Assembly: GCA_030295235.1 (NCBI GenBank)
Contig: AP026162.1
Location: forward strand, 2,232,001 to 2,296,000
DNA length: 64,000 nucleotides
Origin: Fistulifera solaris
Taxonomy: Eukaryota
Direction of reading: 5' to 3'
This document shows positions 8,557 through 53,463 of this stretch, in pieces; the stretch's first letter is position 1; every line of letters begins with the position of its first letter. The notes under the pieces were generated by a model, which saw nothing but the letters and a program-made list of their open reading frames with translations, was not told where the DNA came from and searched no databases. A program made the position numbers and the translations under genes.

Positions 8557-9689
8557 TCAGACCTCGGAAAAGCCACTCGAATCTTGCGTTGCAATCGTGC
8601 TAGCGACAGAATCATTTTCACCACGATACGGAAAATGAGCTTTTACGGCAGCCCCCACTCCACACTGATCAATATTTAAGAAAAGCTTTCTAATTGAAGG
8701 TAACCAAGACCAAGAGGAACCAGCTGCCGTATTACAAAACGCTCTTCCCTTACGTGCCGTGTATTGGTGAGGTACCGTCACATCCATCGCACGCTTTTGT
8801 GTTTTTAACAACTCCAGTGCTTCCTTTTCATTTTCCTCGATGATGTTCAATAGAGAAGATATTTTGGCTTCTACTTCTTGAGAAGACAAGTCCGTGTCGT
8901 AGCTTTTGTGAGAAGCCGGAAGGTACAGCGGGGATAATGCCGATGTATGCTCTGTTGTTTGCGAAATGAGTTGCACTTTCACCACTAAGCGGGCATCTTT
9001 CAAAAGACCAACTTCTTTCTGAGCATCCAAGCAGTTCTCTGGCACCCGAACAGGCAGATCCATTAAGAAACTCCCAGTCTCTTGATGTCCAAAGATAACC
9101 AGAAATGCAACACCATGAACTTCTCTACTGTCTTCTTCCCCGGTGACTCTTAGTTTGATCGCCATTTCAATGATCTCCGGAAGAAGAGCCTTAGAACTCG
9201 ACCACGCCGCACCGTTACTTTGGTACGGCGAGTTATAAGGGCATGTGTGTGTGCTTTCTGCGATATTAGTGTCGAAAGTCCTCGAAGTGTTCAACGCATT
9301 TTCGTCATATATTTCCTCCAAAACACAACGGTTTGATCCCGACAAAGATATGATCTGTGAATGATGCGAAACTGGCATTGTCAAAGATAAGTGCGGAAGA
9401 CAATCCTGCGCAGATGGCCGATTCTTGTCGAACCACGATGCCGAAAGGGTGAAGTTTCATTACAACAAACCATATCCACGGGCTGCGATTCAACCATCAG
9501 TCTTCCTGAAGTGCTACATAGTGTAGACGATGCCACTTCCATATCAGTAGCAGAGCCTGTAAAGGCAACTGCTGCAGTTACCTCCCGAGAGTTCTGAATA
9601 TTTCGATTCACTTGGATTCCATGAAGTGTATGCACCGTCAGCTTGACTTTGATGATTTTACATTCACTTTGCGATTGTAAAGTCGTCAT
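8557..9689 (-). CDS. Hypothetical protein (two ORFs joined by an apparent frameshift near 9400-9450)
   Basis: ORFs 9381-9740 and 8557-9384 are contiguous and protein-like, with beta-rich segments 'VKLTVHTLHGI' and 'GVAFLVIFG'. No family recognised. Confidence 0.5.
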
Positions 9690-10155
9690 CTCTTTCAAGG
9701 CATTACACTTAAAATGAGATACGATATCAAAATAGATCATTGACGACAGATGAGATGAGCGATGAATTCTATGGAAGATCTTCCACTGGATAGATTTTGC
9801 AACGCATGGAATGAATCTACCAGTACCAAAAAATGAGCCTTGGATCTACCAAGCGCCCTCAATACATTGGAACAACATTAGAGCTGAGGTGTTTTCCAAA
9901 GTAAGACAGGTTCAATAGAAATCCACATCAACGGTCCGTATGTCGTACGGAATTATGAAACATCGCAAAAAATAAAAATAATATCATCAATAAGCTCATT
10001 TTATGAGGAATTCAATGATGTTTTTGTTAAAACAGATTCTTTCTAGAAGTTAATTTATTCAAGTTACAAAAATTCGCGCGACAAAATTTCCGCAGTCTGG
10101 TACATCCGTCTACAGGATTCTTACATAGGAAATTTATCCCGTATCCTTCCGATAA

Positions 10156-16086: not shown

Positions 16087-18314
16087 ATGCCGAAGACGAA
16101 AGGAAAAGAAGAGACACCAAAAGAGACCCAACAATCTTCTGCCGATGATTCATTTCAAAAACTACCCCTCTCGAGTGGGGTGCTCGAATACATCCAAGAA
16201 CAGAATTTCACTCGTATGACACCGGTACAAGCTGCTACCATTCCGCTTTTCCTTGCTTCCAAAGATGTGGCCGTTCAAGCTGTCACAGGCTCCGGCAAAA
16301 CTCTAGCTTTCCTTATTCCTGTCGTTGAAGCGATTTTGCGCAAAAGTTCAAAAAACATCAAGCGGGTGCTTTGATTTTGTCGCCGACCCGCGAGTTGGCG
16401 CAACAGACTCACGCTGTAGCTGCCGCACTGTGCAGGCACTGTCAACTAAAAGAACCGTTGCTGTTGGTGGGTGGCTCTTCGGCCTCCAGTAGTTTGGCTT
16501 CGACGAGACCCGTGACCGCCGACTTGCAGGCATTTCAAGAAACAGGTCACGACATTTTGATCGGAACGCCGGGCCGTGTAGAGGACATTTTGACCAAGTA
16601 TAGCGTCATCGATACGTCGGAACTTGAGTATTTGATTTTGGATGAGGCTGACGTTTTGTTGAATTTGGGCTTTGCGATAACGCTGCAAAGTATTCTGAAG
16701 AGGCTACCGAAAATGAGACGGACGGGTCTTTTCAGTGCTACCACGTCTTCGACAAATGCGAGTTTGAAGGAATGGACGGGACGAGCTGGTTTGCGGAACC
16801 CGGTTTGGATTGATGTAGCAGTAACGACCAATGTCGCTGAGACGCGAACGGCCCAGGCGACCCCTACATCACTCACCAACTACTTCTTAGTGTGTCCACT
16901 GGACGAGAAATTGTCACGACTAGCGGCTTTCCTGCAAGACCATAGCACCGAAAAGGTCATTGTGTTTTGTCTCACTTGTGCATGCGTCGATTTTTATGGC
17001 AATGCTTTGAAAGTTTTGCTCCCAACTGTATCGATTGAGCCATTGCACGGGAAAATGGTGCAAAAGCGCCGTGAAAAGTCCATGGAACGATTTCGAAGTG
17101 ACGCCGAAGGAGGAACGTTACTTTGTACGGATGTGGCAGCTCGGGGGTTGGATGTATCAAACGTGAACTGGGTGGTGCAATTCGATGCCCCACAAGATCC
17201 GGCCTTTACGTTCACCGTGTAGGTCGATCGGCGCGAGCTGGAAAATCTGGAAATAGTCTATTGTTTTTGACGAGGAAAGAAGAAGCTTATGTGGACTTGT
17301 TAAAAATGAGAAAGGTGCCTCTTTCTCCCTTGCCTTCATCGGAACGATGCTGTCCCTTCATTTATGAAAATGTAGAAGAAGGGAATGACAAGGGAGCAAC
17401 AAAACGCAAGACAGACAAATCAAACGAAGAGGAACCGACCAAACGCACTATACGTTGTAATGATGGAAGTGAAATTGAAGACATTTTTCCCAAAGTAAAG
17501 GAGCTTGTCCTGAGCGATCGCGATTTTTCTCGAAAAAGGCACAAAGGCCTTCACGTCGTACATTCGTGCTTATAAGGAACATCATTGTTCTTTCATTTTC
17601 AGGTAAGTCATAAATCGTCGACTTTATAAACGCATGGACGTGCCATTGTGCATTCACTGAACGCCTCCTAAAATGGGAGACGATGTAGTGTTTGGGCTGT
17701 GCCGTAGAGTGCAATACGATGTTGGACCTGCCGATGATCATCAGTCATTGCTTGTTCCGGGTAGATATCCCTGTGTGTGACGTTCTCAGACTCAAATAGG
17801 AACCCAATGCCCCAACACTTCTATTACTTACCAATACGTCTGTCTTATATTGGTTCGCAGGTTCGCCTCCTTGGATTTAGGTTTACTAGCTACATCGTTT
17901 TGCCTCTTACGGTTGCCCAAAATGCCGGAGCTGCAAGATGCTTTACAGAAACACAAGGGTAAATTGCCGCGTTTTCAACCCGCGGGTCGTGAGATTGATA
18001 TTTTTGCCATTCCCTATCGTGATAAAGTGCGCGAAACCGCTCGCCAAAAGCGTTTAATGCAGGAGCAGGAAGCCGGAGGAAAGAATGCGAAACAGTTGCA
18101 AGCCGAACAGAAAAAGGCAGAAAAAGAGCGAAAGTTGCAAGAACGACGCCAAAAGGCCATGGAAAAGGGTCGAAATCCTGACAAGAAGCGTGGTCGGAAT
18201 GCTCGTATTGTAGATGAGTGGGACGATCTGGCGAAAGAGGAACGATTGTACAAAAAGTTACGGAAAGGCAAAATCACCAAGGAGGATTTGGAAAAAGAGC
18301 TCAATGAAGATTAA
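16087..18314 (+). CDS. DDX55: DEAD-box RNA helicase DDX55/Spb4 (intron 17603-17860; several frameshifts)
   Basis: Q motif '[10 protein letters not shown]', 'AVTGSGKT', 'SPTRELA', 'DEAD', 'RRTGLFSAT', 'HRVGRSAR', and '[18 protein letters not shown]...[10 protein letters not shown]'. Confidence 0.93.
17647..17820 (+). ncRNA. Intronic box H/ACA snoRNA candidate with U17/snR30-like architecture
   Basis: Lies in a 258-nt intron. Branched 5' hairpin (TGCATTC 17649/GAGTGCA 17707), H box ATACGA 17714-17719, an internal hairpin, a 3' pocket hairpin (GGGTA/TGCCC lower stem), and ACA at 17815-17817. Confidence 0.6.
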
Positions 18315-26181: not shown

Positions 26182-27408
26182 ATGCACATTCCGTCCGCAA
26201 TCATGACAACTACAATGATTTTGGCTTCGACGACACGATGGGCGTCGGCCTTTTCGTCGCGTTCATCGGCATTTACTCGCAGCAATTTTCGCTCGTATTC
26301 TTCCACACAACTCTCCATGAAGTTACAAACCGCCATTGTCGGATTACCCAATGTCGATAAATCTACGCTCTTCAATGCCTTGACCGAAACACAAGGTGCC
26401 GAAGCGGCCAATTATCCCTTTTGTACCATTGAACCCAACGTTGGGATTGTGGCCGTCCCGGATCCGCGATTGCAAGTTCTGTCCAAAATCAACAAATCTG
26501 TGAAAATTGTTCCCGCGACTTTGGAATTTGTCGACGTGGCCGGTCTGATCAAGGGTGCAGCGCAAGGCGAAGGTTTGGGCAATCAATTTTTGGGCTCCAT
26601 TCGTCAGTGCGATGCCATTGTGCACGTCGTACGGTGCTTTGAAGATGATGATGTCATTCATGTCGATGGGACGGTCGATCCTATTCGGGATGCGGAATTG
26701 ATTAATTTGGAACTAACGTTTGCGGATTTGGCGCAAGTCGAGAAACGGTTGGAACGCGTTCGCAAGGACCGGAATGCGAATACCGACGAAAAGAATGCCC
26801 TCGAAAAAGTGTCGGCTGTACTCAATATGGATCAACCCGCTCGGCAAGCGGATTTGTCTCCCGAAGAAGAAGCATCGATCAAATCATTGGGTCTTTTAAC
26901 AAGAAAGCCCATGATTTATGCCGCCAACGTGGCGGATGGAGATTTGGCGACCGGTAACGAACGCGTCGACCAACTTCGAGAAATGGCGACCAAAGAAGGC
27001 GGGAAAGTTGTCGTAGTTTCGGCACAAGTCGAATCTGAGTTGGTCGACCTTGAACCGGAAGATCGCGAAGATTTCTTGCAGTCGCTGGGAGTGACCATGG
27101 AGGATACAGGCTTGCGCAAATTGGTGCGAGAGGCGTACGATTTGTTGGGCCTGTCCACGTATTTTACAAGTGGAGAGACCGAAACCCGCGCCTGGACGAT
27201 CAAAAAGGGATGGAAAGCTCCTCAGGCCGCTGGTGTGATTCATAATGATTTCGAGCGTGGTTTCATTCGTGCGGAAACGATATCGTACGAGCATCTGGTG
27301 CAATGTGGCAGTGAACAAGAGGCAAAAAGTAAAGGTTTACTACGAAGTGAAGGAAAGGAGTACGAGGTGCAAGAAGGAGACGTCATTTTGTTCCGCTTTA
27401 ACGTATAG
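26182..27408 (+). CDS. ychF: Organelle-targeted YchF/OLA1 Obg-family ATPase
   Basis: 'ASAFS' bipartite leader, 'ANYPFCTIEPN', 'DVAGL', and TGS domain 'AGVIHNDFERGFIRAE...GDVILFRFNV'. P-loop reads GLPNVDKST. Confidence 0.93.
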   Translation: MHIPSAIMTTTMILASTTRWASAFSSRSSAFTRSNFRSYSSTQLSMKLQTAIVGLPNVDKSTLFNALTETQGAEAANYPFCTIEPNVGIVAVPDPRLQVLSKINKSVKIVPATLEFVDVAGLIKGAAQGEGLGNQFLGSIRQCDAIVHVVRCFEDDDVIHVDGTVDPIRDAELINLELTFADLAQVEKRLERVRKDRNANTDEKNALEKVSAVLNMDQPARQADLSPEEEASIKSLGLLTRKPMIYAANVADGDLATGNERVDQLREMATKEGGKVVVVSAQVESELVDLEPEDREDFLQSLGVTMEDTGLRKLVREAYDLLGLSTYFTSGETETRAWTIKKGWKAPQAAGVIHNDFERGFIRAETISYEHLVQCGSEQEAKSKGLLRSEGKEYEVQEGDVILFRFNV

Positions 27409-27443
27409 TTTTAGCATTGTTATGAATAATTACATTTGTTGTT

Positions 27444-28825
27444 TTATTCACCTTGGAATCGTTCTTCCACTGCCCACAAGCCAAGTGCAGGATTTCGAAT
27501 GAAAAGAATTCACCGTCATCATCCGTATTCCAGCCATCTTTGAGCTTTTGAACGTCATATTTCTTTTCCATCTGTTCCAAACTACCGTAGCCTATTCCAG
27601 CCTGTTCTATTTCGTCGCGCGTGAGATGTCCCGGACAGTAAGTGATGTGGAACCTCCCCTCGGACGAGCCGTGAATGAGATGAGCGACCGCGGACAGATT
27701 ATCCCTCAATTCTTGATTCTCTTCCATGGCTTTCATTGTAGCAGGAGTTCCCTTATATCCATATTTTCGTATGAGTTCATCGACTCGTGCATCTTCACCA
27801 AATCGTTTTACACCCGGAGCCAAGACAATGAGATGACCGTCATCGGCCATGGCCATACGTGTGCGGTAGATCGCCTTGTTCCCCAACCAGGTGCTATGAA
27901 ATTCGTCCGGATCCAGGTAGGTTACCATGCGATGGACTGGTTTTTCCAGCATGGTGAAATTGACTTTGAGACTCAGATCGCACGCTTTCGAGTAACATTC
28001 AATGTCCCTCCCAATGTACAGACCCCGTACGCAGAGATCACCTGTGTCTTTATCCGGAGCCACGACAGTCAGTATGTACCACAAATCCAGCTGCTTCTCC
28101 AGAAATTCCTGACTCGCATAGTTCAAGATGGCACGCAATGGATTGTCCTTGCGACCCATCATGCGCTCCATGCCGTGGACGGCTCCAATGAAATGAGACA
28201 AATTGATGGCTTCGACTCCCCCCGTCCCAACAAACAAGTTCTTGTTGAAATTGGCCATCCCCATGACTTCGTGCGGCACTACTTGCCCGATGGATAACAC
28301 GAGAGACGCCGGTTTCTTGTCTGGACGACGACGCTTGTCCCACACCTTTCGATTCAATTGTGCCGGCCATTCTTGATCGACGAGACCCTGTGTTGCCTCT
28401 CGTACCATGGAAGCCGGTGCATGTCCTATCGTGACGACATCCTTACGCCATTCATGAACAATGAAAGTGTCATCTTGTTTCTTCGCTAGTTGTTCTCCGT
28501 ACATGGTTTTGATTTCCTGCGGTGTCATGGGCGCATGCGTTCCGAGTGCGGGTAAAATTTGTATCGAAGGCGGCGAACTTTTCAGTTTCTTTGTTGATGG
28601 AGTATCGCTAGTCTCTGAAGGGATGAACTGATAATGCTCGCATATCATTTGCGTCAATTTTCCTGCTTGAGAATGGAAGCGCGTGAAATCGGGTGGAATG
28701 ATCAAGACATCGTCACGTGCTCCGAGCGCTTCTAGAAATGAATCAATCTGCTGTCTTAGATCATCGTCGGAAAAACACGTTGTTTCTGATCCGACCGCAC
28801 AGAATAGAGAAGGTGGTTCTGACAT
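27444..28825 (-). CDS. LarA-superfamily (DUF2088) nickel-pincer-dependent racemase/epimerase homologue
   Basis: 'PDFTR', 'ALGTH', 'VPHEVMGMANFNK', 'INLSH' and 'WLGNKA'. A terminal frameshift near 27500 restores '...FIRNPALGLWAVEERFQGE*'. Confidence 0.85.
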
Positions 28826-29851
28826 GATGATTTATTTGATGTGAATTGTTAGATCATCATTCTCTCTATGGCAAGTATCGCGACAAAAACGCAGAACGGT
28901 CATCGCGCCCGTGATCGGATCTTTCAGTACCGTATGGATCGTTTACTATACTGAAGCGATGTCGTCGGACCATAACTTGACTGTGACGTTTCGTACTCTT
29001 CAATTCCAGCGTCATGTCAAAAATGTTTGCCTCTTGCTTGCTCTTTCCGCGCAATGACGAAAATGGGCGCAACATCTGACGGAACGACAGACACGGTTTT
29101 ATTTTCGAGACGCGCGTGCAACTCCGAGATCCGAACAAGGAAGTCATTGTAAAGATTAACTATGGACGGAATAGCGAAGATTTAATGCGTACGAACGAGT
29201 TTACTTAGGAGAATGTCGCTGTAGACTCCGGTACATCGTCTACATGACAAAAATACAAAGTCAACGGTTTCTGCAAAGTGTCGTAAAACAAAAAAAAATT
29301 CAATCGCGAGATTTTTCGTACCAGGTACCCCACTTCCTCTCATTGATCACCGCAGCATCACTTTTGCAAAAACAGCAAGCAGCGCAACCCGAAGATCAAA
29401 TCATTTGATTGAAAACTTCAACAGCATGTAAGTAATTCTTTCAATTCTTTTACCATCGTGATTGTAAATGTATCGAAAATGAAATTGTTCATTTTGATTG
29501 GGATAAACGCTTTGAATGGCAATGTTTTGTTGCTCATGGTCGATCTCCATGCATCGAAAAAGGAACGCAGCAGCGTTGACCTCTTGCTCGAGTGTTTTGT
29601 TTTTCATGTCGTTGGAGGCACGTAGAATTTTGTACGAACGCACGCGTAGAGATTCGGGTCCTGAATCGATCAGTCGTGTCACGTAGAAACAGTACTGAGA
29701 ATTCCCGTAGACACGCACGCTCGTTCTTGTCCGACTGATCGAAAAACATTGAGCGGAATGAAGTTTGCATTTCTCTTGTCAGCACCACTTTTGTAAAGCA
29801 CCTGTCATTGCATTGCCTCACAATTCATTCCCCTTATTGCTGACAGATTGA

Positions 29852-30636
<785 letters not shown>

Positions 30637-32361: not shown

Positions 32362-32832
32362 CTTATTGAATAAAATGAAGTGGAGAATGACCAGGCAACT
32401 CGTTTGAGAAAGTGTTTTGTTAGGAAACACGACCGTTGTAAAAAAGATGCCCCGCAATGACTTCGCGGCAAGCTTCGCGGGAGGCACGAGACCACGGCGA
32501 AACACGCCAAGACACATCGTTTGCTGCGCACTGACGCGCAGGGTCGTGGTGGGAGGAGTTTCCGGTTTACACTGTAATGTACAGTCAATTTCCTTTTGAG
32601 TAACACGGAACTTCATAGTTGTATGTAATAATCGTAGCGGTTCTCAATGAATGGAAAAGACAGCCGTTGAGAGTCGCGCGCCGCCTCACCCTCCGTTTCC
32701 CTCCTCCGCCGTGCGAAGAACCGCCGCCATGCGGTGCACACAAATAAATGACAGTGACAGCACCAAAATATAAAGCATTCATTCGTTCGTCCTTTCTCTG
32801 CACGAGACTTGTTTCAAACCTCTAGACAGATC

Positions 32833-35800
32833 ATGTCACCCACCAAACGAACTATATTTCTCGAACACTCCGACGACTTGCTTCCGCTGAAACGATTGCG
32901 GGGCGGTGGTGAGGAAGAGGAAGAGCCCGCGTTCGACGAAGTCTTTGTGGAGGAATACGACGGTCCGGAACCTCCGGACGAATTTCTCGAAGAAGAAGCA
33001 CCGCTCGTCATTGAAAAGGAAGAACATATCGTTCGTTGGAAACGTCCCGATGTGCCTAGCGACCTCAATAATCAATCCGACTTGAATGTGCAATGGATTG
33101 ATATGGACGTTGTCTCCGGAAAGCCCCTCCAGGAAAATCCCAATCCCCAGAACCCCGTGCGGGGTGGAAACGGTCCCGAAGTTCCCGTCTTGCGTTGTTA
33201 CGGTGTCAATGAAGCCGGTCATTCCGTCGCCATCTTTGTTCATGGCTTTACGCCGTATTGCTTCTTTGCGTTACCCGCCGGATACGCATTGACCGACACG
33301 ACAAAGACGGAAGAAATTCGACACATCCTCGAAGAACGACTCAAAGGGGATGTCCGGAGCAACCAAGCGGACAGTGCCTTGGTACACGGCGTCGAGTACA
33401 TTACCGATCACAAGAGTATCATGGGATACGAAACACAGCACACCCAGTTTCTCAAAGTGTTCCTTTCGTTGCCCGGTCTCGTTCCCACATTAAAACGCAT
33501 CATGGAAGGCGGCATTCATTTGCCGGGCATTGAAGTCACGGATCCGGAAGCGGCTTCGTCGATCGGTGAAGAGTATGGCCGCATGACGAGGTTTGCGGCA
33601 TTTGAATGCAATGTGCCCTTTGTACTACGTTTTATGGTTGACTGGGAGATTACCGGGGCCGGATGGTTGACATTGCCGGCACACACGTATAAGATCCGTG
33701 AAAAATGTGATAAGTTGACGCATTGTCAGGTAAGTGGTTATTTATCAAGGTCATCGGTGATGTATGAGCATTGTGTCTCACCTGAATCATCGTCTCGGCA
33801 CTTCAGATTGAAGTCGATATTACCTACGAAGATATCGTTCCACAAAAATCAGAAGGCGAATGGAACAAGATTGCGCCGTTGCGAATCCTTTCGGTGGATA
33901 TTGAATGTCAAGGGCGAAAGGGACACTTTCCGGAGGCCGAGCAAGATCCGGTCATCCAAATTGCCAACTCGTTATCCGTATCCGGCCAAGACAAACCAAT
34001 TGTGCAGAATGTCTTCACGTTGAAAGGATGTTTGCCTATTGTCGGAGCACAAGTTATTTCGTCGGACAAGGAAGAAGACATGTTGATGAAGTGGAGAGCA
34101 TTTCTGGAGATTTGTGACCCCGACATTATCACCGGCTACAACGTGCAAAATTTCGACATTCCGTATTTGCTCGATCGTGCCGCTACTCTTTGCAAAGGCA
34201 ACAAGAATAGCGATTTGAAGAATTTCGCTCAGTGGGGTCGTATCCGGAATGTCAAAGCCAAGATGAAGGATACTACTTTTCAATCCGCCGCCTTTGGCAA
34301 GCGCAACAACGTCGAGACCACCATTGATGGCCGTGTCATCTTTGACATGTTACCTTACATGCAGCGCAATCACAAACTCAGTTCGTACTCGCTGAACTCT
34401 GTCTGCGCCGAGTATTTAGGACAGCAGAAAGAAGATGTACACCACAGCATCATTTCGGATCTGCAGAACGGGAGCGACGAAGATCGTCACCGATTGGCGG
34501 TTTACTGTCTCAAGGACGCTTTGTTGCCACAGCGCCTTATGGATAAGCTGAGTGTTCTTGTGAACTACATTGAGATGGCGCGTGTAACAGGTGTGCCCAT
34601 GTCGTTCTTGATTTCGCGTGGTCAGCAAATTAAAGTTTATTCCATGATTCTGCGCAAGTGCCGCAAAGTCGGTTTGTTGGTTCCTACGTTGCAAAAGTCC
34701 GGTGGACCGGGTGATGGCGATGTTGGTTATGAGGGAGCTACAGTTTTGGACCCTATCAAAAACTACTATGAAGTGCCCATTGCAACCTTGGATTTCGCTT
34801 CGCTTTACCCTTCCATCATGCAGGCGGTAAGTCATGATATTTCTGGATGCATTTCTCCGTGCTATATTTGCTCATTGTCGGTTTCTCTTCTTTCAGTATA
34901 ATTTGTGCTACTCTACTTTAGTGAACCAAGCGGAAAAGAAGAAGTTGGACTCTTCGCTTTACAAGGAATCAGACAACGGGTACATATTCGTGCATTCGCA
35001 CGTCAAGAAAGGTGAGTTTTTAAGCAGCTTGATGCAACAGTTGTTGCCCTTACTGAAACCACCGATATCAACAGGTATTCTGCCGGAGATTCTGGAAGAG
35101 TTACTAAACGCTCGAAAGCAGGCAAAGAAAGATATGAAGAACGCCCCAACAGATTTCGAACGTTCTGTGCAGAATGGTCGTCAGCTTGCGTTGAAAGTAT
35201 CGGCCAACTCCGTGTACGGATTCACTGGAGCTACAGTGGGTCAACTCCCTTGCGTTCCGATAGCTTCGTCTGTCACCTCCTATGGCCGACAGCTTTTAGA
35301 AAAAACAAAGGCGTACGTCGAGGAGAACTTCACAAAAGCCAATGGATACGAATACGATGCGCAAGTCATCTACGGTGATACGGATTCAGTCATGGTCAAG
35401 TTCGGAACGAAGACTGTCAAAGACACGTTTCCTCTCGCCGAAGAAGCGGCTGAAAAGTGTTCCGCGATTTTTCCTCACCCGATTCAGTTGGAGTTTGAGA
35501 AAGTCTATTTTCCTTATCTTCTCATGTAAGTGCCCGGTTAAAGGGCGATAGATGTGCCTTGGACACGATTTTCTGACCTTCGCCTACCCCAGGAACAAAA
35601 GCGCTACGCTGGACTTATGTGGACCGAGATTGAAAAGTACGATAAGATGGACACCAAAGGTCTCGAAACAGTTCGTCGCGACAACTGTGCATTAGTGCGC
35701 GACGTCATTCAAACGTCGCTCGACAAGATCTTGATCCATCAGGACGTAAACGGGGCGATTGAATATGTAAAGAAACAAATCTCGGATCTTCTGCAGAATA

Positions 35801-36521
35801 AGATGGATATTTCTCAGCTTGTTATTACCAAGTCTCTGAATAAGGGAGCTGAGTACGCGCTAGGAATCGGAGGTAAAAGGAGGACTACAAAGTGAAACAA
35901 GCTCACGTTGAGCTCGCTGCTCGAATGAAGAAGCGTGACGCTGGTTCTGCACCACAGATGGGAGACCGCGTTCCGTACGTAATCATTACTGGAGCGAAGG
36001 GTGCCGCTAACTTTGAAAAGGCGGAGGATCCCATTTTCGTTCTTGAGAACAATATCCCAATTGACTTCAAGTGGTATCTTTCCAACCAGTTGTCGAAACC
36101 GTTAGCACGTATTTTCGAGCCTATTATCCCGAACGTCGAGAAAGTTCTCCTCCAAGGCGACCACACTCGTAAAATCTTCATTCCTACGTCGACCGCCAGG
36201 AAGGGAACCATGAGTGCTTTTGCTGTTAAGATGGCGCAATGTCTTGGCTGTAAAGCTCTTATCCCATCTGGTCGAAAGGGCTACATTTGCGAGTACTGTG
36301 CACCTCGTGAAGCAGAAATCTTCCTCGAAAAGTTGGAAGCCTACCGTGAGGCGGAGTTACGATACAATGAGTTGTGGGCGGCTGCGCAACGTATCCACGG
36401 AACAGTTCATTCGGACATCATGTGCACCGGAGATGGATGCGCCTGTCAGTTTTACCGACGCAAGAAAGTTCAGGCTGACATTCGCCATGCGCAGGAAATA
36501 CTCGATAAATTCGGTCGCTAA
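32833..36521 (+). CDS. POLD1: DNA polymerase delta catalytic subunit (introns 33730-33806, 34827-34896, 35012-35074, 35526-35592)
   Basis: ExoI 'VDIEC', 'GYNVQNFD', 'YCLKDA', 'LDFASLYPSIM', 'RQLALKVSANSVYG', 'YGDTDS', 'KGLETVRRDNC', and a C-terminal Cys domain. Confidence 0.97.
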
Positions 36522-42336: not shown

Positions 42337-43824
42337 TTAGGGAATTGTTTCACCAATCTCCCCCGAGCCGTACCAATCTTGTTGAACTCGCGTACTGGAG
42401 AAGATCGGAAGTCGGTTCTTCATGTGGACCATATCTATTTCCCACATGATATCGTCCGACAAAGGCTCCTTGATTTGAAAGTATTTTAGACTCTGTTCGA
42501 GTTGCTGCATGTTGCTGTGACCGACGAGAGTCGTCGTGATCAGCGAGCGCTGGCGACACCACCGAAGTGAGAGTTCGGTCAGACTCATCTTATACTTTTC
42601 GGCGATACGACTGTACTCTTGGATCGCTTGCTGCGCGGCATCGGTTCGGTATCGATACAGAGTGCCACCCCATCCTCGAGTATCCATCCGTCCCCGGGGA
42701 TTTTCCAAGGACCGAATTGCGCGTTCGCGATTCGGCAGGTCGTCCAGGGCGGCTGGAATGTCCAAATATTTTCCCGTCAACATGCCACCCGCCAAGGCGT
42801 TGTACGACATGAACCCAACATTTTCATTAAAGGAGAAGCCGCTTCGGCGACACCATTTTCTTCACTTTTGCGGTCAATGAGACTAAAGTCCCCTTGTATG
42901 GAACACGGGGGTGTCGTACCGAGCGCTTTGGCGGTGCGCGTACAAGCGGTCAATCCGTAGGCATTGTCGTTGCAGAGTCCCCAACCCCGAATTTTTCCTT
43001 CTTGGATCAGTTCTTCCATAGCCAAACAGAGATCTTCAAAAGAAGTCGGGCCTCCCATGGACCGCCAGTAAAGATTGGAATCATTCTCAATGTTATATGC
43101 GAGACTTTGACCCCAGTTGCTTTGCGGTGAGTATCTCTGAGGCCAGTGCAATTGATACACATCGATGTAATCTGTTCCCAGTCGTTTAAGACTTCCGATA
43201 CCTGTTCCGCGGGTCAGATGAATGTAGGAAGGTTCACTTGATAAAAGTGTGTGTTTTGGTCCACTTACAGTCTTTTTTAATATTCTGAGGTGTCACATTT
43301 CGTCCGCCGGTAATCTTTGTCGCAATAACCACTTTCCTTCGATCGACTTTCCGATCTCTTAACCATTTCCCAATCACAATTTCCGTATCACCTTCTCGAA
43401 CGCCATCGGAAGGAATGGGATACTGTTCCGCCGTATCGAGAAGATTGACGCCATTTTCGAGAATAGCCTTATCCATGAAGGCGAAACAAGCGGCTTCGTT
43501 GGGGGCATTGAAATCCGACGAAACCCAACGTTGCGTCCCCAAACCCAACTCGGAGACCACAATATCCGATCCTCCCAGTCGTCGGTGTTTCATGCCATTC
43601 ACGGTGCGAATGAATTCATTCGTTTTCCCTTTCGAAGACGCTCCATAAGCCGGATCCTTTCTTCCTCCAAAGAATCCTCCCAACAGAGAGGACGCCAAGA
43701 CGGTCCGTCGGGAAGAACTTGTGACCATCGTCGTAGCGTCGCGTCCTTGGCACGTATAGAACGCATCCGAGGATACCGCGAGGAGCGCTCCCCAAGCGAT
43801 CATGAAGAATGTCAATGAAGCCAT
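42337..43824 (-). CDS. Plastid-targeted aldo/keto reductase (Tas-like); intron near 43267-43201, frameshift near 42825
   Basis: Signal peptide with 'SDAFY', 'VSELGLGT', 'DTAEQYP', 'IATK', 'YQLHWPQR' and 'LAGGMLTGKY'. Confidence 0.9.
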
Positions 43825-45276: not shown

Positions 45277-47092
45277 TCATCCTTCCGCGCTATGTGACTT
45301 TGCTTGATGCTTGGGCTGAAAATGAAAACCTTCTGGAACAGGTCCCAAAAGCATTTCCGATATCTTGATCCAATCCGAGGCTTCGCTGGAAAGAAAGAGA
45401 GTTTCGAGGTCGCTGCGACCGCACATGAAGGGTGGAACTCTCTGATTCATGGACTGCGATGCTGTTTCCAACAATCCAATGGGGACCTGTAAAAACAAAT
45501 GCAAACGTAAACCGTCAGTAAGAGCGTACGTATCCTTTCAACTCAAAGAACAGTGTAACTTGCATAGCGATGAAGGAAAGAGAGCCATTCCAGTAGGAAT
45601 CGGCGACAATTATCAACTCCTTTCTGATCACTCCCCCAATGCTCCAATCCGAATCGAACAAAATCTTTCAAAATGTCCAATCTCTCTGTAGCCGAAATAT
45701 CCCATTGTCTCTTTTCTTTGATTTCGGTCGGTAGCCAAGGTTTAATTAACGCCCCTCTTCCCAACATCGCACATGAGGAAATTCCTTCACGTGATGTACT
45801 TTCTTCGTAGTCTTTGTACGAGAAAATGTCGCCGTTTCCAATAACAGCAATCTTGGGTAGACTCTCATCTTGGTTTAAAGCAGCTCTTGATATGTAATCC
45901 CAGTCAGCTTCCTTCGAGTATCGTTGGAGGCGTGACCGACCATGAATCATTACAGCACCGACCCCACCCATACCCCACTTTTGAATCTTCGCGACGAGTT
46001 CATGGGCAAAGGCTTCGCCATGTCCCAGCCTGTTCTCATTTTGATTGTTACGGGACAAGAGAGAGTTTGTGTGATGCCTTTAATTGCGTCTTTGACCTTA
46101 TTCTGGCGCAACATCAAAGCTGCCCCGGCTCCTTTATCGTTGATGATATCCAGCGGGCATCCTAGATTCAAATCAACAAAATCTACTTTTGTATGATTTT
46201 CAATAAGTTCACATGCACGCGTAAATAGATCAGCATGTCCTGCGGCAAGCTGCACACCGAAAATATCTTCGTCGGCATGTCGTTTCAGGAGAGCCCATTC
46301 GGAAGCGTTTCCCATCAAGATGTGTGAGGCAACCGCCATTTCACCGCACGTAATATCAGCACCCAACTTTTTCATCACGCGACGAAAAGGTAAATTGCCG
46401 ACAGTCGTGAGAGGAGCAATATAAACTTTGTTGGAGAAATCAATCATCTTTCGCGACTTTTCAGGGAGAGGTGTCATGTCGGGCAACGCTTCGCTGCTTT
46501 CGTTCTCTTCGGGGGCAGAGGGATTCTCGAGCGCGTCGTCATTCTTTTTCTGATTGAACTTTTGACAAACAAAAGGATACTCGTTTCTGCGCAATTGAGA
46601 CTGGACATCACGATCTAGCAAGTTGAGAACTTGAGTAGAAGCATCAACTACTCCTTCTTTCCGCAGATTCTCTCCCGTCGCGAGATTCAGATGAGACCCT
46701 CCAAGTCGACAAGTAGCTCCGTACATGCAAAACCCATAGAGATTGTAGTGAGGACAACCACCTTCGATTTGATCGATATCGGGTGGTCTCGACGCAAGAA
46801 AAGCCTTGATGTCGTGAGAAAACTTGCACGAGTCTCCGTGTGTGCACACGTCGCCTCGTAGATGAATCAGACACATCTTTGCATGGTCGCCATTCTCTTC
46901 GCGAAGTCGTTTGTTTTTCCTTTTGTTTTTACGGCTTTTGGGGGTTTCGGAATGGACAGGGACTATTGGAACGATAGGAGGCAAGCAAGAGGCACGCTCG
47001 GACAGAATGAATTCTGCTTTCACGCGCACCGAAAATCTTTCGTTTTGACCGGTTCCCTTGTCCTCAACTTCACCGGTTTTTTTCGTCTCCAT
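45277..47092 (-). CDS. DUS3: tRNA-dihydrouridine(47) synthase DUS3
   Basis: Two CCCH fingers, 'APLTTVGNLPFRR', 'DLNLGCP', 'HGRSRLQRY' and 'GRGALIKPW'. Intron near 45565-45487, frameshift near 46010. Confidence 0.93.
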
Positions 47093-52012: not shown

Positions 52013-53463
52013 TCACGGTGCATTCATTGTCCTTCGCGAATCGAATCGAAAGCCGCCTACACAAAGCTGTAGTGACCTTTGCATTTGCTCGATATCTTCA
52101 CCTAGTTCCTCATCTACTTCGTGAGCTCTAGGTATGGCGGTTCGTGCTCCGGGTCCACCGAGCTTTCGCCCAGCTACCCACGATGCGAAAGAAAGCGCCA
52201 AGCGAGGTTTGTGTTTCAATTCCGAATGCAATTTGGCCAAGAGAAAGGCACCGAAGAATGCGTCCCCAGCGCCAGTTGTATCCACAATCTCCGCATTTGA
52301 AAGGATACCTGCCGTTTCCAAATGGTATCTGGCAGTACAAAGCACATCTTCTTTCTCGTCATTGACATCGGAAAAGACTTGTTTGACGGAAGCACGCATT
52401 ACACCGTTGTCAAACACCGAAACCGAAACCGAAACCTCATTCACGGGCATGATTTGTTTGTTCTCTTCTTTGATTTGAATCGAATCGCAGCGGATTAAAG
52501 CTGACCCCTGACTTCCTCTCGTGATGACAATCTCCTTCCCGATTTGGTTGTACCACCGAGTAAAGAACGCACTCGGGCGAATGAGATGAGCGAGTAACTT
52601 TGCATCCGCTTCCTCTATTTTATCATCATGACATACAGATGTTGGCATGAGCGGACTTCTCTCTCGCGAGTCTTCCATTTCTCGAGTAAGCTTGGTCAAA
52701 TAATCCTCGAGTTGATCGGCATTTGTCAGTACAATCGATGCTACATCGAGTAGTGCATCCAGTGCCTTGCTATTCCGATCCTTCTCGACATCCAAAGAGA
52801 CGGGTATACCTCGTTTTTGGGCTTCGCGCGCCAGCTCCAGAGCTACATCCGTATGGCGAGCGTCTGTGTGAAGCAAAACAACATTTTGGAATAGTTCATC
52901 CCTATCCACTTGTTGCAATTCGTCCAACGTCAACTCCCCACAGGTCCCCGGAGTATGAATGCAAGTTCTCGTGTGTTCATCCTCACTGACGACTATCGTC
53001 GTGAATGCCGTCGTCGATCCTTCGATCCCCACTCGAAACAAGGGAGAAGAAAGGTCGACACCTTCGGCCTCTAAATCGGCCATAATTTGTCGACCCACAT
53101 AGTCATCGCCGACCTTGGTACACAATTGGATGCGATAGAATGACTCTCGAAAAATGGCAGCGCGTGACAATCGCGCCATGGCGGTCGCGGTATTGGCCGC
53201 ATTGCCTCCACCGACTTCGTGGTAGACCGTCGTCCGTACTTTGGCGTCCGGGGTGGGATAGTGGGAGACGCTCAACAAACGATCCATCCCACAGGCTCCG
53301 ATCACGAGAATGACTTTTCATGGCTCATGAGGGACCGAGAGTGGTATCGGCGGGTTGTCGGTGGTACGAAATACTGTTGATTGATGTGCCGAACCCCAGG
53401 AAAGGCGTACGAGGGTTGACAAACGAATATCCAGCTCAATAACGTCTTCCAATAATGGATCAT
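52013..53463 (-). CDS. PfkB-family carbohydrate kinase, likely plastid-targeted
   Basis: 'GGGNAANTA', 'VGDDYVG' and 'VDTTGAGDAF'. An upstream frame gives the signal 'MIHYW...SYAFP', joined by a frameshift near 53317. Confidence 0.88.

Follow-up and report, generated by a model that had tools for sequence, protein, structure and literature searches.

Whether a diatom can carry an enzyme that works with the nickel-pincer nucleotide (NPN), and on what such an enzyme would act, is the question raised by a single intronless gene of Fistulifera solaris. Diatoms are major primary producers, and to our knowledge the nickel enzymes known from them are urease and nickel superoxide dismutase (Ni-SOD). 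The gene lies in a stretch of 64,000 nucleotides (GenBank assembly GCA_030295235.1, contig AP026162.1, positions 2,232,001 to 2,296,000 of the forward strand), which is called the window here and to which coordinates refer unless another sequence is named. A sequence-only reading of this stretch had proposed an NPN-dependent epimerase of the LarA (lactate racemase) superfamily, possibly acting on sugar acids. According to the present analysis, the gene is predicted to encode an intact member of that superfamily, belonging to group 18 of the LarA homologues (LarAH) and to their GntE branch. It is probably a nuclear diatom gene for a group-18 enzyme, most likely cytosolic, whose likeliest reaction is the epimerization of D-mannonate and D-gluconate. 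We infer from the data given below that NPN is used in vivo, and likewise the substrate, the origin of the cofactor, and the direction and role of the reaction in the diatom. The parts of the gene on which the argument depends are the following.

27398..28825, minus strand: literal open reading frame (ORF) of the window, 475 amino acids; its last 34 residues (S442 onward) are an out-of-frame read-through.
27444..28825, minus strand: true coding sequence, predicted LarA-superfamily enzyme (LarAH group 18, GntE branch), 460 amino acids, intronless; this counts the base missing at 27502-27505.
27502..27505, no strand assigned: A4 homopolymer (T4 on the coding strand), one base short; public sequencing runs have A5, restoring ...GEFFFIRNPALGLWAVEERFQGE and the stop.
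28679..28693, minus strand: PDFTR, residues 45-49; D46 and R49 are predicted to correspond to D72 (catalytic) and R75 (NPN-binding) of LarA, and are aligned to GntE2 D38 and R41.
28565..28618, minus strand: low-complexity insertion, residues 70-87, seen in the alignment; the structure model has low confidence (63) at residues 71-80.
28535..28549, minus strand: ALGTH, residues 93-97; H97 is the predicted counterpart of the catalytic His108 of LarA, aligned to GntE2 H73.
28193..28276, minus strand: P184-H185-E186-V187...K195...H211, with H185, K195 and H211 aligned to GntE2 H154, K164 and H180; the predicted roles are second catalytic His (H185), GntE-type substrate loop (EV), NPN tether (K195) and nickel ligand (H211).
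27875..27883, minus strand: GNK, residues 315-317; K317 is the predicted counterpart of LarA K298, aligned to GntE2 K287.
27680..27685, minus strand: A381-H382, the residues that complete the GntE signature (E, V, A, H); this AH is aligned with the AH of structure 4NAR.

The span 27444-28825, which the sequence-only reading had given for the gene, comprises 1382 bases, one too few for whole codons, and its end points proved to be those of the true coding sequence. Alignment with homologues showed that past ...DDGEFF the ORF listed for the window runs into an unrelated tail of 34 residues, and that all aligned homologues, the bacterial ones included, go on with F-I-R/S-N-P-A-L-G-L-W after the same point. 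The conserved C-terminus, FIRNPALGLWAVEERFQGE, with its stop at 27444-27446, was found in the window in another frame, the frameshift affecting the last 20 codons of the gene. Logan contigs from four public runs (two studies) were aligned to window positions 27300-28900, and an extra A behind position 27501 was present in all four (X1 to X4) at full depth (35.8/35.8, 25.5/25.5, 18.2/18.2 and 8.2/8.2; the run data are contigs, and depth has no bearing on expression level). One of the contigs with the extra A was otherwise identical to the window over 27300-28900. The frameshift of the window reflects a mistake in the assembly or, at the very most, a private variant, and the real product therefore has 460 amino acids. 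A database protein of this length (P0001) is 98% identical to the window protein.

Over the same region, the four runs contained two variants of the gene side by side. Some run contigs had the sequence of the window, and others diverged from it at about 5-9% of positions, with in-frame insertions of 3 and 6 bases at 28323 and 28606, which suggests alleles that have diverged, or the presence of a strain or species closely related to this one.

The assignment to group 18 was based on the NCBIfam model NF052594, "nickel-dependent putative hexonate epimerase" (NPN_18_hexonate), which has a curated equivalog cut-off of 500 bits. The window protein scored 549 bits (E 5.5e-165) with residues 16-454 covering positions 3-410 of the 411 in the profile, and P0001, which has the correct C-terminus, scored 569 bits. 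The cut-off was also passed, at 526-570 bits, by five other eukaryote-like homologues, of which three come from named diatoms. Pfam gave only a weak Lar_N match (37 bits, residues 81-138). Among solved structures the best sequence match was 4NAR, the GntE2 protein of Thermotoga maritima, both with the single sequence (E 1.3e-29) and with a profile of 15 sequences (E 1.3e-42). An AlphaFold2 model built from 46 sequences reached a mean predicted local distance difference test score of 90.6 and a predicted template modelling (TM) score of 0.89, and in a Foldseek search its top match was again 4NAR (E 8e-26, TM 0.79/0.86), with 21% identity in the structural alignment. There were 19 Foldseek matches at E <= 0.001; the 14 listed, reaching to rank 15, were all LarA-family structures, including malate racemase. 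The model thus has the two-domain LarA fold.

Other assignments were considered and rejected. The lactate racemase model for LarA, NF033504, gave 21.8 bits against a cut-off of 460, and the substrate loop reads EV instead of FF. For malate racemase the score was 37.5 bits against a cut-off of 500, and none of the remaining LarA-type models came near its cut-off. A fusion protein was rejected as well, as the seven longer or closest homologues that were inspected had the Lar_N domain only.

All of the motifs named in the sequence-only reading (PDFTR, ALGTH, PH-x9-K, a further His 16 residues later, and GNK) were located in the translation of the intronless ORF. PH-x9-K spans residues 184-195 (28241-28276) and the codon of H211 lies at 28193-28195, so that the spacing of LarA H174, K184 and H200 (+10, +16), which that reading had pointed out, is reproduced exactly by H185, K195 and H211. 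Homology of these residues to those of LarA was one of the points on which the earlier proposal depended, and here the alignments bore it out. HMMER alignments paired seven residues with GntE2 (D46 with D38, R49 with R41, H97 with H73, H185 with H154, K195 with K164, H211 with H180, and K317 with K287). In PMC7583248, cited here and below, like PMC11770544 and PMC12611868, for those portions of the text that were available, R41, K164 and H180 of GntE2 are the counterparts of R75, K184 and H200 of LarA, and the catalytic residues D72, H108, H174 and K298 of LarA are conserved in GntE2. By way of GntE2 the seven residues thus correspond to D72, R75, H108, H174, K184, H200 and K298 of LarA, the pairings other than R75, K184 and H200 being taken from motif order. 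For the DxTR motif, this route was preferred to a direct phmmer alignment with Lactiplantibacillus plantarum LarA, in which the insertion at residues 70-87 causes the motif to be misplaced at the ragged N-terminal end. The insertion was found in eukaryote-like sequences and not in bacterial homologues, and its length differs among diatoms.

In the alignment of 46 sequences (44 eukaryote-like and two bacterial), all seven functional residues were invariant. The same holds for E186, V187 and H382, while A381 was conserved in at least 90%. These residues, together with A381, occupy the four GntE specificity positions, where the usual residues are E, V, A and H (PMC11770544). Groups 18, 19 and 20 have been joined by such specificity features, E and then V or S behind the catalytic His, with A and H in helix 14, and group 18 was hypothesized to epimerize a hexonate (PMC7583248). 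The match to NF052594 and the complete signature fit the earlier proposal of an NPN-dependent epimerase possibly acting on sugar acids, and point to a hexonate as the probable substrate.

In the proposed reaction, Lys195 would tether NPN, His211 would ligate its nickel and Arg49 would contact the cofactor. Aided by Asp46 and Lys317, His97 and His185 would then invert C2 of the hexonate by proton-coupled hydride transfer. Conversion of mannonate to gluconate and further to 6-phosphogluconate would let mannonate, possibly supplied from uronic-acid or mannose-derived material, enter metabolism. The Entner-Doudoroff and pentose-phosphate routes, both of which have been described for diatoms, may be linked to this conversion.

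The gene neighborhoods of bacterial relatives are consistent with this assignment. In a gammaproteobacterial metagenome-assembled genome (MAG; L002, 51% identity), the gluconokinase gene gntK overlaps the start of the epimerase gene. In a Bacteroidales MAG (L001, 53%), the neighbors are glucuronate isomerase (uxaC), D-mannonate oxidoreductase, 6-phosphogluconate dehydrogenase (gnd), a hexuronate-type transporter of the major facilitator superfamily (MFS) and a LacI regulator. A metagenome scan with the family alignment yielded 80 loci, of which 78 read as bacterial (49-56% identical) and two, L017 and L018, looked eukaryotic. Their flanks, searched by tblastn (E <= 1e-10), contained gnd in 37 loci, uxaC in 26, a UxuB-like short-chain dehydrogenase/reductase in 48 and an MFS transporter in 21; the 80 loci include the two eukaryotic ones and many that are cut short by contig ends, and the dehydrogenase/reductase count may hold unspecific matches.

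In L001, a 295-residue ORF without an NCBIfam match (8934-9821 of that contig, plus strand) lies directly upstream of the group-18 gene and follows a gene resembling pyrophosphate-dependent phosphofructokinase. Similar sequences were seen in 3 of the 80 metagenome loci.

Several points weigh against a diatom mannonate/gluconate epimerase using NPN. As assembled, the gene in the window has a frameshift close to its 3' end. Pfam was run on 47 of the 60 window ORFs of at least 140 amino acids (the 13 others were nested or antisense), and among these 47 no hexuronate or gluconate gene adjoined the epimerase gene; an operon arrangement is not expected for eukaryotic genes. The same 47 ORFs included no LarB, LarC or LarE, as the sequence-only reading had noted for the window, and tblastn of the window with the LarB, LarC and LarE proteins of two bacteria gave no Lar match below E 0.18. 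No lar biosynthesis gene was found on the eukaryotic contigs L017 and L018 either. Database searches for long or fused forms, in which the first 260 residues of a bacterial LarC and a 165-residue LarB core served as queries and only longer proteins were kept, gave 3486 of 7999 candidates for LarC and 3928 of 8000 for LarB at E <= 0.001. No eukaryote-named protein was among the best 120 of each set, and the organism-named rows listed were all bacterial. These two negatives count only weakly and do not show absence, because the best 120 of more than 3400 matches were listed in each case. As to the substrate, the available text of PMC7583248 and PMC11770544 reports GntE activity only for LarAH15 and for enzymes of groups 19 and 20; for group 18 it is a hypothesis. 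GntE1 (group 19) had a Michaelis constant (Km) of 120 mM for mannonate, and a different native substrate was suspected (PMC7583248); given this very high value, the native substrate may be another hexonate or an aldarate.

The strongest rival is an orphan LarA homologue in diatoms that lack LarB, LarC and LarE, with NPN or a precursor obtained from bacteria, with another ligand in its place, or with no cofactor at all. The absence of lar biosynthesis genes from the window and from L017 and L018, and of eukaryote-named LarC or LarB among the matches listed, is what such an orphan would leave behind. Against it, the NPN-tethering Lys, the nickel-ligand His and the cofactor-binding Arg were invariant in 46 of 46 sequences, which speaks for continued NPN binding, and NPN-biosynthesis genes, like LarA homologues, are stated to occur in some unicellular eukaryotes (PMC11770544). 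Moreover, the bacterial larB, larC and larE genes are mostly unlinked to the epimerase gene too. In both bacterial genomes that were checked, a larC-larB-larE cluster whose three members each exceed their curated cut-off lies well away from the group-18 gene, and near the epimerase gene in the 80 metagenome loci LarC was found in two, LarB in two and LarE in one; absence from one window therefore says little. The orphan explanation is accordingly judged unlikely. The invariant tether Lys and nickel-ligand His across diatoms argue that NPN would be available to the cells, whether made or acquired.

One form of acquisition would be a vitamin-like auxotrophy comparable to that for B12, in which diatoms without LarB, LarC and LarE rely on bacteria for NPN or a precursor. 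About 74 kb of diatom DNA was examined (the window, L017 and L018), and no NPN-biosynthesis gene was found in it. Such a dependence is given a slightly lower probability than the orphan explanation as a whole, and is offered as a tentative idea.

The searches for cofactor-synthesis proteins also brought up an unusual LarB architecture and a number of fused proteins. P0349 (383 amino acids, on a contig of 4296 bases) has an N-terminus that is basic and rich in Ser and Arg, and two LarB-type domains in tandem, matched by NF033503 in two segments with 311 bits. Fusions of LarC with LarE, about 665 residues long, were common in the database (P0145, P0147, P0153, P0171 and others listed in the LarC search), as were LarE-LarB fusions and fusions of a LarC fragment with LarB, of 420-530 residues (P0251, P0257, P0261 and others listed in the LarB search). 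The one named example among the fused proteins carries a name that is bacterial and in JGI style.

A second rival keeps the enzyme class and changes the substrate, to altronate, idonate, gulonate, mannarate or another hexonate, uronate-derived acid or aldarate. It draws on the wording of PMC7583248, in which group 18 is hypothesized to act on "a hexonate", on the suspicion of another native substrate that the Km of GntE1 raised in the same paper, and on the low identity of the diatom protein to GntE2 (21%). The E, V, A, H signature of the characterized GntEs is nevertheless complete and conserved in the diatom family, and bacterial group-18 genes stand beside gntK and gnd, whose products consume gluconate and 6-phosphogluconate. 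Another substrate is thus considered improbable, a little more so than an orphan enzyme, and D-mannonate and D-gluconate are retained as the likeliest pair.

The third rival concerns the origin of the DNA. Pfam matches among the window ORFs included NAC, an AP-complex mu subunit, DEAD helicases, DNA polymerase delta, symplekin and UBC, among others, and the GC content of the window is even (0.41-0.51). The epimerase gene is nuclear and eukaryotic, and two of its neighbors are as follows.

26182..27408, plus strand: YchF/OLA1-type GTPase gene, convergent with the epimerase gene; 35 bases separate its stop from the true stop of the epimerase gene.
29855..30265, plus strand: gene for histone H3, upstream of the epimerase gene by about 1 kb; identity read from the translation.

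A protein search returned 8000 scored candidates, all with E <= 0.001, and the best 120 were 54-98% identical to the query. Eleven of these 120 carried organism names, all of them diatoms: Seminavis, Epithemia, Mayamaea, Nitzschia (two), Cylindrotheca, Chaetoceros, Thalassiosira (two) and Bacillariaceae MAGs (two). The named diatom genomes with the gene include those of Seminavis robusta, Nitzschia inconspicua, Cylindrotheca closterium, Mayamaea pseudoterrestris, Thalassiosira profunda and Chaetoceros debilis. Some diatom orthologues lie on contigs of 1-4 Mb (up to 4.35 Mb), and four rows among the best 120 have labels of transcripts from MMETSP, a transcriptome project. In their source records the diatom proteins are labeled 'DUF2088', 'LarA-like N-terminal domain-containing' or 'nickel-dependent lactate racemase'. 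The start of the protein is level with that of its bacterial relatives, and from this lack of an N-terminal extension a cytosolic location was inferred.

For the tree, 202 sequences were used after one bacterial ORF of less than 395 residues had been dropped, and 130 rows were removed at an identity of at least 70-72% to a kept row. In the resulting 'quick' IQ-TREE tree of 72 rows, a single branch (length 0.56, SH-like approximate likelihood ratio test 99) separated 47 eukaryote-like from 25 bacterial rows, the eukaryote labels coming mostly from clustering with named diatoms; the tree is unrooted and thus assigns no donor. Identity was 45-62% (median 55%) between the two sets and 54-100% among the eukaryote-like rows. 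Contaminating bacterial DNA in the assembly, or a recently transferred gene decaying into a pseudogene, might have been suspected from the close bacterial relatives (51-53% identity) and from the frameshift in the window, but is refuted by the present data and hardly credible, since the gene stands among eukaryotic genes in 64 kb of even GC content, has orthologues on megabase-scale contigs of named diatoms, falls with eukaryote-like rows across one branch from the bacterial rows, has homologues with transcript labels and is frameshifted in none of the four public runs.

Some other features of the window were recorded. The genes for the catalytic subunit of DNA polymerase delta (32809-36521, plus strand), a Dus3-type dihydrouridine synthase (45543-47092, minus strand) and a DEAD-box helicase (16371-17575, plus strand) appear as ORFs overlapping in different frames; such split single genes could reflect further one-base homopolymer errors, or short introns. 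A PfkB-family sugar kinase (52013-53305, minus strand; nearest to ribokinase models, below their cut-offs) lies 23 kb from the epimerase gene, and an aldo/keto reductase, in two ORFs (42337-43824, minus strand), lies 14 kb from it.

Eukaryotic LarA homologues as such are already known: all belong to the GntE branch, and one is active, according to the available text of PMC11770544. The sequence-only reading had therefore overstated the novelty of the gene, as LarA homologues of unicellular eukaryotes and an active enzyme of Phytophthora nicotianae had been published there. Literature searches joining lactate racemase or nickel-pincer with diatom found nothing on topic, judging by titles and the beginnings of abstracts. 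The text of one supplement of PMC11770544 mentions no eukaryote, diatom or oomycete, and the taxonomy figures may list diatoms. The current study adds that the family is conserved among diatoms and that none of its cofactor residues varies, assigns it to the unassayed group 18, and corrects a frameshift in the assembly. If the proposed function is true, a conserved NPN-dependent epimerase would be a third, organometallic nickel requirement in diatoms, and would imply either NPN synthesis in eukaryotes or cofactor uptake. It would also allow diatoms to turn mannonate, and with it uronic-acid or mannose-derived material, into gluconate and 6-phosphogluconate. The notion of a nickel sink, also put forward in the earlier reading, is speculation.

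Among known systems, there is a distant likeness to L. plantarum LarA (5HUQ, 6C1W). The model shares its two-domain fold (TM 0.67-0.72), and the diatom protein has the H/H/K/H/R/D/K functional set, as traced through GntE2 (PMC7583248). Identity is, however, only about 15%, and the substrate loop is EV in the diatom protein and FF in LarA.

GntE2 (LarAH20; 4NAR), a D-mannonate/D-gluconate 2-epimerase, was the best structure match by both sequence and fold, and its seven functional residues and E.../AH signature are in register in the diatom protein. The two differ in that they are about 21% identical and belong to groups 20 and 18, respectively; after the catalytic His-Glu, GntE2 has S and the diatom protein V, and before the catalytic Lys the residues are G and N.

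Oomycetes and diatoms are both stramenopiles. LarAH15 of the oomycete P. nicotianae resembles the diatom protein in coming from a unicellular eukaryote and in its place in the GntE branch (PMC11770544), the likeness being drawn from the published description. It is described as the first eukaryotic LarAH with confirmed activity, a D-gluconate 2-epimerase with a Km of 9.4 mM for D-mannonate, in the paper that also places all eukaryotic LarAHs in the GntE branch (PMC11770544); this is repeated in PMC12611868.

Bacterial members of LarAH group 18, a group taken from Desguin et al. 2020 (PMC7583248), are among the closest known systems. Unlike in these bacteria, the diatom gene is eukaryotic and nuclear and stands outside a hexuronate/gntK/gnd operon, its product has the low-complexity insertion at residues 70-87, and the eukaryote-like rows lie beyond a well-supported branch from the bacteria sampled. 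The diatom protein lies above the NF052594 cut-off, both as the window ORF (549 bits) and as P0001 (569 bits), shares 45-62% identity with the bacterial proteins, and agrees with them in the residues for catalysis, cofactor binding and specificity.

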